From a virus, in IMG/VR virus record IMGVR_UViG_3300010389_000013, positions 9 through 64,008 of that record: DNA of 64,000 nucleotides; one strand, given 5' to 3'. Of this stretch, positions 61,207 through 61,503 are shown one piece after another. The position numbers were made by a program, and so were the translations under genes. A model generated the notes under the pieces. The model had not been told where the DNA came from. It made no database searches and was given only the letters and a program-made list of their open reading frames with translations. Position 1 is the stretch's first letter. Every line of letters starts with the position of its first letter.

Positions 61207-61467
61207 CCCGTTCCTTCAGTCGTGTGCGTCCTTGCTATCAAAACAATGAGGATCTGTATGATTCATCCAGTGGATGAGAAGATCAGATTTCTCAAAGGGA
61301 GTGAAAAGAGTTGTCTCTTCCAATCCTTGCTTCAACCATTCATAGTCTTCACAGCGAAGATAATTCTCCACTGGGACATGACTAAAGAAAATCAAAGCGA
61401 GTGATAACATAGGATGAACGCTCCGTTCCGCGACTTACTTGCGTCCCACCCGAGAGCGGGATGAACG
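61207..61467 (-). ncRNA. glutamine-riboswitch-like (glnA / Downstream-peptide family) double aptamer region
   Basis: Two copies each of CGUUCA-UCC, GGA-CGCA and GGAACGG; AGUA/GAA E-loop strands; complementary AGUCG/CGACU. Confidence 0.75.
61216..61410 (-). CDS. 64-aa ORF nested within the riboswitch-like RNA
   Basis: GGAG 9 nt upstream of the ATG; hydrophobic N-terminus; C...C pair. Confidence 0.65.
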   Translation of the reverse strand: MLSLALIFFSHVPVENYLRCEDYEWLKQGLEETTLFTPFEKSDLLIHWMNHTDPHCFDSKDAHD

Positions 61468-61474
61468 TATGGTT

Positions 61475-61503
61475 ATTATACCATACTATGTATGCTTTGA
61501 CAA
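61475..61503 (-). promoter_or_regulatory. sigma70-like promoter of the riboswitch locus
   Basis: TTGTCA-17-TATAAT with TG extension; predicted start near 61468-61469, at the aptamer 5' end. Confidence 0.85.

Follow-up and report, generated by a model that had tools for sequence, protein, structure and literature searches.

The 64,000-nucleotide (nt) stretch of DNA analysed here (the window) covers positions 9 to 64,008 of the IMG/VR virus record IMGVR_UViG_3300010389_000013 (64,151 nt) and is a fragment of a T4-like cyanomyovirus, in which psbA, thyX, transfer RNA (tRNA) genes and a cyanobacterial-type transfer-messenger RNA (tmRNA) are present. On its minus strand the window contains an operon leader which in all likelihood forms two glutamine-aptamer cores, nested and pseudo-symmetric, that share a helix P3 of 5 base pairs (bp) and enclose a 64-codon gene. 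The element represents a new architecture among glutamine riboswitches and is widespread in cyanomyoviruses; in the window, the terminal loop of one stem, P2′, has been expanded to hold a genuine gene. A first-pass annotation of the sequence had proposed two glutamine-aptamer-like units in one RNA, the second with a stem that loops out a whole open reading frame (ORF), and this proposal is borne out; the term "interlocked" that it used is not appropriate, as the fold is nested and neither interlocked nor knotted.

Two full sets of glutamine-aptamer core motifs (CGUUCA, a stem, ACGCA and GGAACGG) are found on the minus strand at 61467-61208, with every motif named in the annotation at its coordinates. 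Read in the direction of transcription, and hence with descending coordinates, the order is CGUUC-A (61467-61462), a hairpin (61461-61444), CGCA-AGUA (61443-61436), AGUCG (61435-61431) and a single C, GGAACG (61429-61424), GAG (61423-61421), CGUUC-A (61420-61415), UCCU-AUG, the remainder of the ORF (61410-61216), within whose distal part lie AGGA, CGCA-CA (61228-61223) and CGACU (61222-61218), and finally GAA (61217-61215) and GGAACG-G (61214-61208). The motif GACGCA-N10-GGAACGG occurs twice in the 64-kb window, at 61445-61423 and 61230-61208, and has no match in 100 dinucleotide shuffles of it. Homologues were collected from 19 sequenced cyanophages in 15 Kyanoviridae genera and, by pattern scans, from several hundred IMG/VR contigs; the element order is identical in all of them.

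The outer core is a canonical type-1 (glnA) three-way junction, composed of helix P1, the hairpin P2, an E-loop and helix P3. The 5′ strand of outer P1 (CGUUC, 61467-61463; strand a, the first CGUUN) pairs with 61213-61209, which belong to the distal GNAACG (strand b′; GGAACG in the window). P2 (UCCCGC-loop-GUGGGA) shows compensatory changes in three of its five outermost pairs, and the compensated pairs are seen as C:G, A:U, U:A and G:C. The junction CGCA-AGUA is invariant in 104 of 104 ORF-bearing elements and aligns to CGGAAGUA of the Rfam family RF01739; its CGC is predicted to supply the pocket triple and the linchpin C61441, and its AGUA the 5′ half of the E-loop. The P3 strand AGUCG pairs with CGACU, 208 nt downstream. 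The 3′ half of the E-loop, strand b′ and the linchpin G61208 together (61217-61208) match GAAGGAACG of RF01739. This 3′ half is GAA in 71, AAA in 16 and CAA in one of the 88 parsed elements, whereas the AGUA half does not vary. In an alternative seen in RNAfold predictions, G61208 opens a small hairpin (61208-61195).

The inner core is a circular permutation of the same core, into which P3 opens, with its own P1, P2′ and CGCA. Inner P1 (61429-61416) is a hairpin formed by the proximal GNAACG (strand a′) and the second CGUUN (strand b), here GGAACG and CGUUC, with the 3-nt loop GAG; across relatives this loop has 3-5 nt, and its first base is G in 104/104 and 88/88 elements. The long-range stem P2′ follows, in which UCCU-A-UGUUAUCA (61414-61402) pairs with UGAUAGCAAGGA (61240-61229), as seen in both the RNAfold prediction and the alignment. 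The stem comprises 12 bp, with the A of the ORF's AUG (61410-61408) bulged out, precisely as first annotated. The junction CGCA-CA closes the core: ACGCA is invariant in 104/104 elements, the next two bases are AA, CA or UA, and 3′ of this second CGCA lies the 3′ strand of the shared P3. An E-loop is confined to the outer core. In the glutamine-II structure the nucleotides C1, G2, U3, U4, G18, C19, G35 and A37-G41 are named in the ligand-binding helix (PMC6698751), and the corresponding pocket and pseudoknot-helix nucleotides are invariant in both cores of the element. Since the pocket is preserved twice, each core would be expected to bind L-glutamine, giving two sites on one fold. In the same solved structure the position equivalent to the inner-loop G forms a long-range pair with the C of CGCA (PMC6698751), and we propose that G61423 pairs likewise with C61226 of the second CGCA as the linchpin of the inner core.

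Thermodynamic prediction and comparative analysis both favour this arrangement. Unconstrained folding of 61470-61195 with RNAfold gives the complete nested fold as the minimum free energy (MFE) structure, at -86.1 kcal/mol, and P2′ is present in both the MFE and the centroid folds; the 271-nt fold has a z-score of -3.1 relative to shuffled sequences. In an alignment of 91 ORF-bearing elements, 98.8% of the cells assigned to helices of the nested structure are paired and 139 double-sided changes are counted, a level reached by none of 500 shuffles, while slid controls reach 30-51% paired. Compensatory changes are present in all five helices, in agreement with the annotated pairing of the outer CGUUC with the distal GAACG, the AGUCG/CGACU helix beside an AGUA/GAA E-loop and the permuted inner junction. 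As most core positions are invariant, it is the few varying core nucleotides that decide the topology. In outer P1 the sole variable pair, pair 5, is C:G in 84 and U:A in 7 sequences and thus paired in all 91; pair 5 of inner P1 reads C:G in 69 sequences and G:C in the other 22, with none broken. Only three combinations of the four P1 strands (a, b′; a′, b) are found among 88 distinct ORF-bearing elements: CGUUC, GGAACG; GCAACG, CGUUG in 63, CGUUC, GGAACG; GGAACG, CGUUC in 18, and CGUUU, GAAACG; GCAACG, CGUUG in 7. There is no true exception to the matching of a with b′ and of a′ with b. Apparent exceptions, in which CGTTGA, CGTTAA or CGTTTA stood with a b′ of GGAACG, were traced to mis-anchoring of the search pattern on P2-loop or upstream sequence and were rejected.

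The covariation extends to the long-range helices, for which it had been named beforehand as a check, and both P3 and P2′ covary in a set that overall comprises more than 190 distinct relatives from the Kyanoviridae genera and IMG/VR contigs. P3 is seen as AGUCG/CGACU, AGUCG/CGAUU (with a G.U pair), AAUCG/CGAUU, AUUCG/CGAAU, AGUCA/UGACU and GGUCG/CGACU, so that pair 1 occurs as A:U and G.U, pair 2 as G:C, A:U, U:A and G.U, and pair 5 as G:C and A:U. Variant scans for positions 3 and 4 returned none, and these two pairs are therefore uninformative. In P2′, four base pairs are paired in 100% of the sequences and pair 4 is C:G in 65, U:A in 25 and U.G in one of the 91; cognate P2′ strands pair at -7.8 kcal/mol versus -5.9 kcal/mol for non-cognate strands (p = 2e-13). 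Taken over the alignment, these patterns indicate that the nested fold is the structure conserved in evolution.

The ORF within P2′ (61410-61216) is shown by its pattern of divergence to be a genuine protein-coding gene. It is open in 143 of 143 relatives, representing 111 distinct nucleotide sequences of 53-64 codons. Read in frame, the ratio of non-synonymous to synonymous polymorphism (pN/pS) is 0.33-0.34, as against 1.1-2.2 for the two shifted frames; third codon positions account for 53% of the differences, insertions and deletions occur in multiples of three, and amino-acid motifs are kept across families that have strongly diverged in nucleotide sequence. The protein has a hydrophobic N-terminus, two conserved cysteines and a C-terminal DA(H/N)D motif. 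It belongs to PHROG 13397 (E = 2.9e-48), which has no assigned function, and is annotated as T4-GC_430 in phages S-MbCM7 and S-BM3; no Pfam family matches it, and a protein atlas returns only unnamed viral clusters (at most 0.81).

Both ends of the gene are built into the RNA fold. Its AUG lies inside P2′, 6 nt after CGUUC; in every distinct element scanned, the AUG is located within the 5′ strand of the stem at 5-8 nt after the CGUUCA hexamer, a distance equal to the window allowed by the search. Its stop codon UGA (61218-61216) overlaps P3 and the E-loop, and 106 of the 113 distinct elements have a U(G/A)A stop that takes its U from the 3′ end of P3 and its other two bases from the start of the E-loop strand. 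As the stop lies on P3 and the E-loop, the DA(H/N)D tail is encoded by the aptamer core. It follows that ribosomes would have to unwind the fold, which upholds the earlier suggestion that translation of the inner ORF melts it.

Comparable genes are seen elsewhere in related elements. S-CAM3-type relatives contain a different ORF of 65-68 codons in the outer P2 loop (L004:460-906 in S-CAM3; IMG/VR contigs L140, L145, L149, L152, L155 and L157), with the same start and stop logic, and S-CAM3 itself carries ORFs in both P2 loops. These outer ORFs start approximately 13 nt from the predicted transcription start and have as their stop either a UAG or UGA within the 3′ strand of P2 or the UAA that AGUAA contains. 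A third location is the inner P1 loop, which in six contigs (L042:2150-3090 on the plus strand, L060, L062, L109, L119 and L122) holds a 192-residue ORF. In L042 this ORF (2256-2834) contains a GRGYIGS motif and lies between GCAACG-GAGCGU and UAAU-CGUUGA, downstream of which the remaining nested element and a 53-codon ORF continue. It has no Pfam match and may be a free-standing GIY-YIG-like homing gene that uses the riboswitch loop as a landing site.

The best surviving alternative, which we consider rather unlikely, accepts the nested aptamer and takes the embedded ORF to be a passenger or mobile insertion, translated co-transcriptionally before the 3′ strands exist and without any coupling to glutamine. 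Such an account fits with the very common compact forms in which P2′ ends in a tetraloop, gene-free forms being at least as common as ORF-bearing ones, and with the occurrence of ORFs in P2, in P2′ or in both, and of the 192-residue ORF in the inner P1 loop. Metatranscriptome contigs with "joints" that skip 173-190 nt are such compact relatives, and an interpretation of these joints as splicing was rejected. A passenger would, however, not be expected to place its start codon within the stem in every distinct element scanned, nor its stop so regularly on the P3/E-loop codon; of 30 outer ORFs, 25 stop within or beside the 3′ strand of P2 or the E-loop. The G/A variation of the E-loop, moreover, preserves a stop codon (UGA or UAA). 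With the start in a stem and the stop in a core, a ribosome cannot start or finish without invading one of the cores.

A second alternative, that two independent tandem glutamine riboswitches, each with its own GGAACG, act pseudo-cooperatively, is very unlikely. In this phage the duplicated strands are identical (a = b and a′ = b′), so that the tandem fold is available to the window sequence as well. Permissive Rfam matches align the first unit in this way, RF01704 passes its cut-off on the first unit of the compact homologue L290, and the alignment of Weinberg et al. (2010) and the catalogue of Sherlock & Breaker (2022) treat such elements as tandem. The tandem fold nevertheless mismatches the variable P1 pair of both units in 69 of the 91 relatives (C.C, U.C, G.G or G.A), exactly where the nested helices compensate, and it gives no account of the covarying AGUCG/CGACU helix or of the AGUA/GAA E-loop. 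Imposed on 61470-61195, it reaches -82.7 kcal/mol, 3.4 kcal/mol worse than the nested fold. Thus, a switch between the two folds, which the first-pass annotation had taken as alternative states of one RNA, is possible in this phage and is not conserved. The same holds for the ribosome-binding site (RBS) GGAG, which had been placed in a hairpin loop: the inner P1 loop reads GAG, GUUC, GAAC, GAU, GGUA and others, with only the first G invariant.

Hardly credible is a third view, in which 61410-61216 is an untranslated structured RNA domain and the 260-nt leader a stable regulatory small RNA resembling Yfr6 (itself initially taken for a non-coding RNA of ~250 nt; PMC2864571, PMC6212724), which would suit the 5-20x higher metatranscriptome depth of the leader and ORF and the highly structured interior (z = -3.1), but is at odds with the frame-specific pN/pS and third-position bias, the intact ORF in all 143 relatives, the indels in threes and the conserved amino-acid motifs.

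The nested architecture would also explain how the element behaves in Rfam searches. At gathering thresholds there is no hit at the locus, and a permissive scan returns the first unit only, with 26.3 bits for Glutamine-II (cut-off 33) and 23.0 bits for Glutamine (cut-off 35); a search of the phage record itself gives the same sub-threshold hits only. The silence at the window is presumably due to the 208-nt insertion in P3, which the model would not accommodate. Two compact homologues, L305 and L290, in which the second stem is a short tetraloop hairpin, pass RF01739 with 45.9 and 40.2 bits (cut-off 35); the alignment there follows the outer aptamer and counts the inner unit as 38-43 nt inserted into P3. 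In total, 419 cyanophage records match the element, in addition to hundreds of viral contigs. In 401 cyanobacterial genomes sampled across the phylum, a tighter pattern gave 3 hits, versus 5 for a reversed control, and none of these is real; a genome-collection scan with the loose pattern AAGTA-N6-GNAACGG-N1-4-CGTT returned 120 loci, all of which are chance matches without the surrounding element.

The outer junction shares all consensus features with the type-1 glnA aptamer (RF01739; Klaehn et al. 2018), in its P1 (CGUUC/GAACG), the following A, P2, ACG(C)AAGUA, P3, GAAGGAACG and the G that after P1 serves the long-range pair, and resembles it in its position in the 5′ leader of a gene for a DUF4278/IF17-like peptide. 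Unlike in type-1 aptamers, P3 is uncapped and opens into the permuted core, with strands 208 nt apart (38-43 nt in compact relatives), the junction is CGCA, as in type 2, rather than CGGA, and a stem loop holds a protein-coding gene; in addition, the element occurs in phages and is not found in the 401 cyanobacterial genomes. With Glutamine-II (RF01704; Huang et al. 2019) it has in common the core of CGUUCA, stem, CGCA and GGAACGG, with the junction spelled CGCA in both, and the link to short YRG peptides that is seen in marine picocyanobacteria. It differs from Glutamine-II in having no P2(II) hairpin that presents GGAACGG in its loop, and hence no H-type pseudoknot: no covarying hairpin flanks either GGAACGG in the 91-sequence alignment, and both are accounted for by the nested helices.

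The glutamine riboswitch class, its ligand, its gene association and its occurrence in T4-like cyanophages are known (PMC2864571, PMC6212724, PMC9602691). The glnA seed alignment of 2010 (PMC2864571) already includes these double elements from ocean metagenomes, one of them ORF-bearing, in a layout of neighbouring units with the partner in the flank, and glutamine doublets have since been catalogued as tandem, "pseudo-cooperative" and under multiple expression platforms (PMC9481103). The element shares with the doublets of Weinberg et al. (2010) and Sherlock & Breaker (2022) the presence of two cores before one gene. In those the units are treated as independent, whereas here the P1 strands are exchanged, P3 is shared and there is a single expression platform. 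Independent tandem riboswitches form each aptamer from its own contiguous sequence, and it is this contiguous P1 that is broken in both units of most relatives. A further likeness is to the tandem glycine riboswitch, in that two homologous ligand-binding domains are combined in one fold. The glycine aptamers are arranged serially and dock by tertiary contacts, with no nesting through exchanged strands. Tolerance of genes in terminal loops of a conserved RNA is likewise seen in group I introns that carry homing-endonuclease genes; to our knowledge, the ORFs of such introns do not have their start and stop inside the catalytic or a ligand core. Neither the strand-exchanged topology with its shared P3, nor the permuted inner core, nor genes in aptamer loops were found described in the literature covered, which did not include Ames & Breaker (2011) and Ren et al. 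(2015).

The element is preceded by a strong sigma-70-type promoter (61503-61475), as originally annotated, with TTGTCA (61503-61498), a 17-nt spacer and TG-TATAAT (61480-61475). The promoter scores 11 of 12 matches plus the TG extension, and lies 7 nt from CGUUC; its spacing to CGTTCA is the same in relatives. Transcription is predicted to start at about 61468-61470, 1-3 nt 5′ of the aptamer. Downstream, at 36 nt from the distal end of the element, follows a gene (61172-61008) with the Shine-Dalgarno (SD) sequence AGGAG (61185-61181) for a 54-residue DUF4278-like peptide with a YRG motif (phrog_545, E = 5e-33; Pfam DUF4278, E = 4.7e-4, below the curated cut-off). The DUF4278 context that had been assumed for the element holds generally, as 200 of 200 distinct elements precede a Y[RK]G (DUF4278-like) ORF of 35-67 residues at 26-65 nt after b′. 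A second YRG-motif ORF of 55 residues (61006-60839), containing KYRGVTYW, has no PHROG or Pfam match, and in the relatives WH25-B and S-M1 two annotated 55-residue genes are found at its place. The operon is predicted to end at an intrinsic-terminator-like hairpin with a U-tract (60850-60829).

Contig depth in four ocean metatranscriptomes climbs 100- to 5000-fold at the predicted transcription start, from the bins at 61461-61501 to those at 61420-61460, is very high over 61460-61174, is ~5-20x lower over the downstream gene than over the leader and ORF, and returns to baseline below ~60886, at the terminator. Such depth is confounded by the number of related phages that share each segment, and nothing more is taken from it than that the leader is transcribed and abundant. 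A conserved anti-SD sequence that would fix the ON or OFF direction was not found for the window, and no conserved expression platform was derived. In many relatives, though not universally, CCUAAA pairs with UUUAGG of the SD region, a few nt beyond the equivalent of G61208. About one-fifth of the elements contain an extra conserved module between the aptamer and the RBS, consisting of AACGGAUCC, a covarying stem with a GAAA-type loop and AGAGAAGGUUAAUUU. Its carriers include L012, L013, L296, L297, L307, L313 and L322, where it lies between the distal GGAACGG and the SD sequence, and it may serve as an additional domain of the expression platform or form a pseudoknot.

Directly upstream of the promoter (61942-61523, minus strand), the window encodes an Endonuclease VII/HNH-like protein of 139 residues (E = 5e-11 to Pfam PF02945). 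The gene at this place differs in other phages, where speD, nrdB-adjacent ORFs and thioredoxin are seen; given this variation, the window's gene probably encodes a mobile endonuclease that has inserted next to the operon of the riboswitch. The tmRNA, of the permuted cyanobacterial type (RF01851, 165.8 bits), lies beside three tRNAs in the stretch 35390-34844 (minus strand), with a fourth at 36930-36847 (minus strand), and is 26 kb apart from the riboswitch element. An association of phage tmRNAs with glutamine riboswitches has been discussed for marine Melnitz-like phages (PMC9004378).

Several points weigh against the nested architecture as set out here, in addition to the sub-threshold Rfam scores of the window, restricted to its first unit, and the confounded contig depth. 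Some positions were fixed by the patterns used to draw the IMG/VR sample, although their pairing partners were left free. The compensatory changes trace to a modest number of clades, and the cell counts therefore overstate the number of independent events. P2′ of the family with 53-codon ORFs has only 4-6 bp to close ~160 nt, and is weak unless tertiary contacts or the ligand support it. The inner core lacks an E-loop and its P1 is capped by a very short loop, where the proposed linchpin pair between the loop G and the C of CGCA may be sterically strained; being invariant, this pair is beyond the reach of covariation. Finally, the abundance of compact forms and the 192-residue ORF in a different loop imply that the genes could be passengers.

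If the nested pair of cores functions as the structure suggests, ligand-stabilised folding of the inner core would bury the initiation region of the embedded ORF (approximately -20 to +15, comprising the inner P1 hairpin and the P2′ strand), and glutamine should consequently repress this ORF, which would be OFF at high glutamine. In hosts, glutamine riboswitches turn DUF4278/IF17 genes ON (PMC6212724) and, by analogy, the folded outer aptamer would favour translation of the downstream IF17-like peptide. A ribosome on the embedded ORF would open P2′, the second CGCA and P3, and on terminating would cover the 3′ strand of outer P1, dismantling both pockets. Translation and glutamine sensing would thereby be mutually exclusive on one molecule. 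As a tentative extension, rather more doubtful than the fold itself, one phage RNA might control two genes oppositely by means of two strand-exchanged glutamine pockets on a shared helix, with the ribosome as a second input and the aptamer loops as gene-carrying sites. At high glutamine the fold would be locked, the embedded gene silenced and the downstream IF17-like glutamine synthetase inhibitor on; at low glutamine ribosomes would enter the embedded gene, and their passage and termination would hold the outer aptamer open, with the downstream gene off.

Riboswitches are thought to be rare in phages. Only two glutamine aptamers were found in cyanophage genomes by McCown et al. in 2017 (PMC5473149). 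The "tandem" glutamine riboswitches of phages now look like one interlaced structure, able to carry genes in its loops. "Tandem" glutamine hits hence need different modelling and a new covariance model is required, as long-insert members such as that of the window are currently invisible to Rfam. The architecture predicts two ligands per folded unit, with possible true cooperativity, and one of its two ligand cores is a natural circular permutation. It also provides a natural case of a protein-coding gene that is initiated and terminated inside an aptamer. For the cyanophages, it makes testable how host nitrogen status is read via glutamine during infection, where the outputs at stake would be the expression of an IF17-like peptide and of a small cysteine-containing protein.

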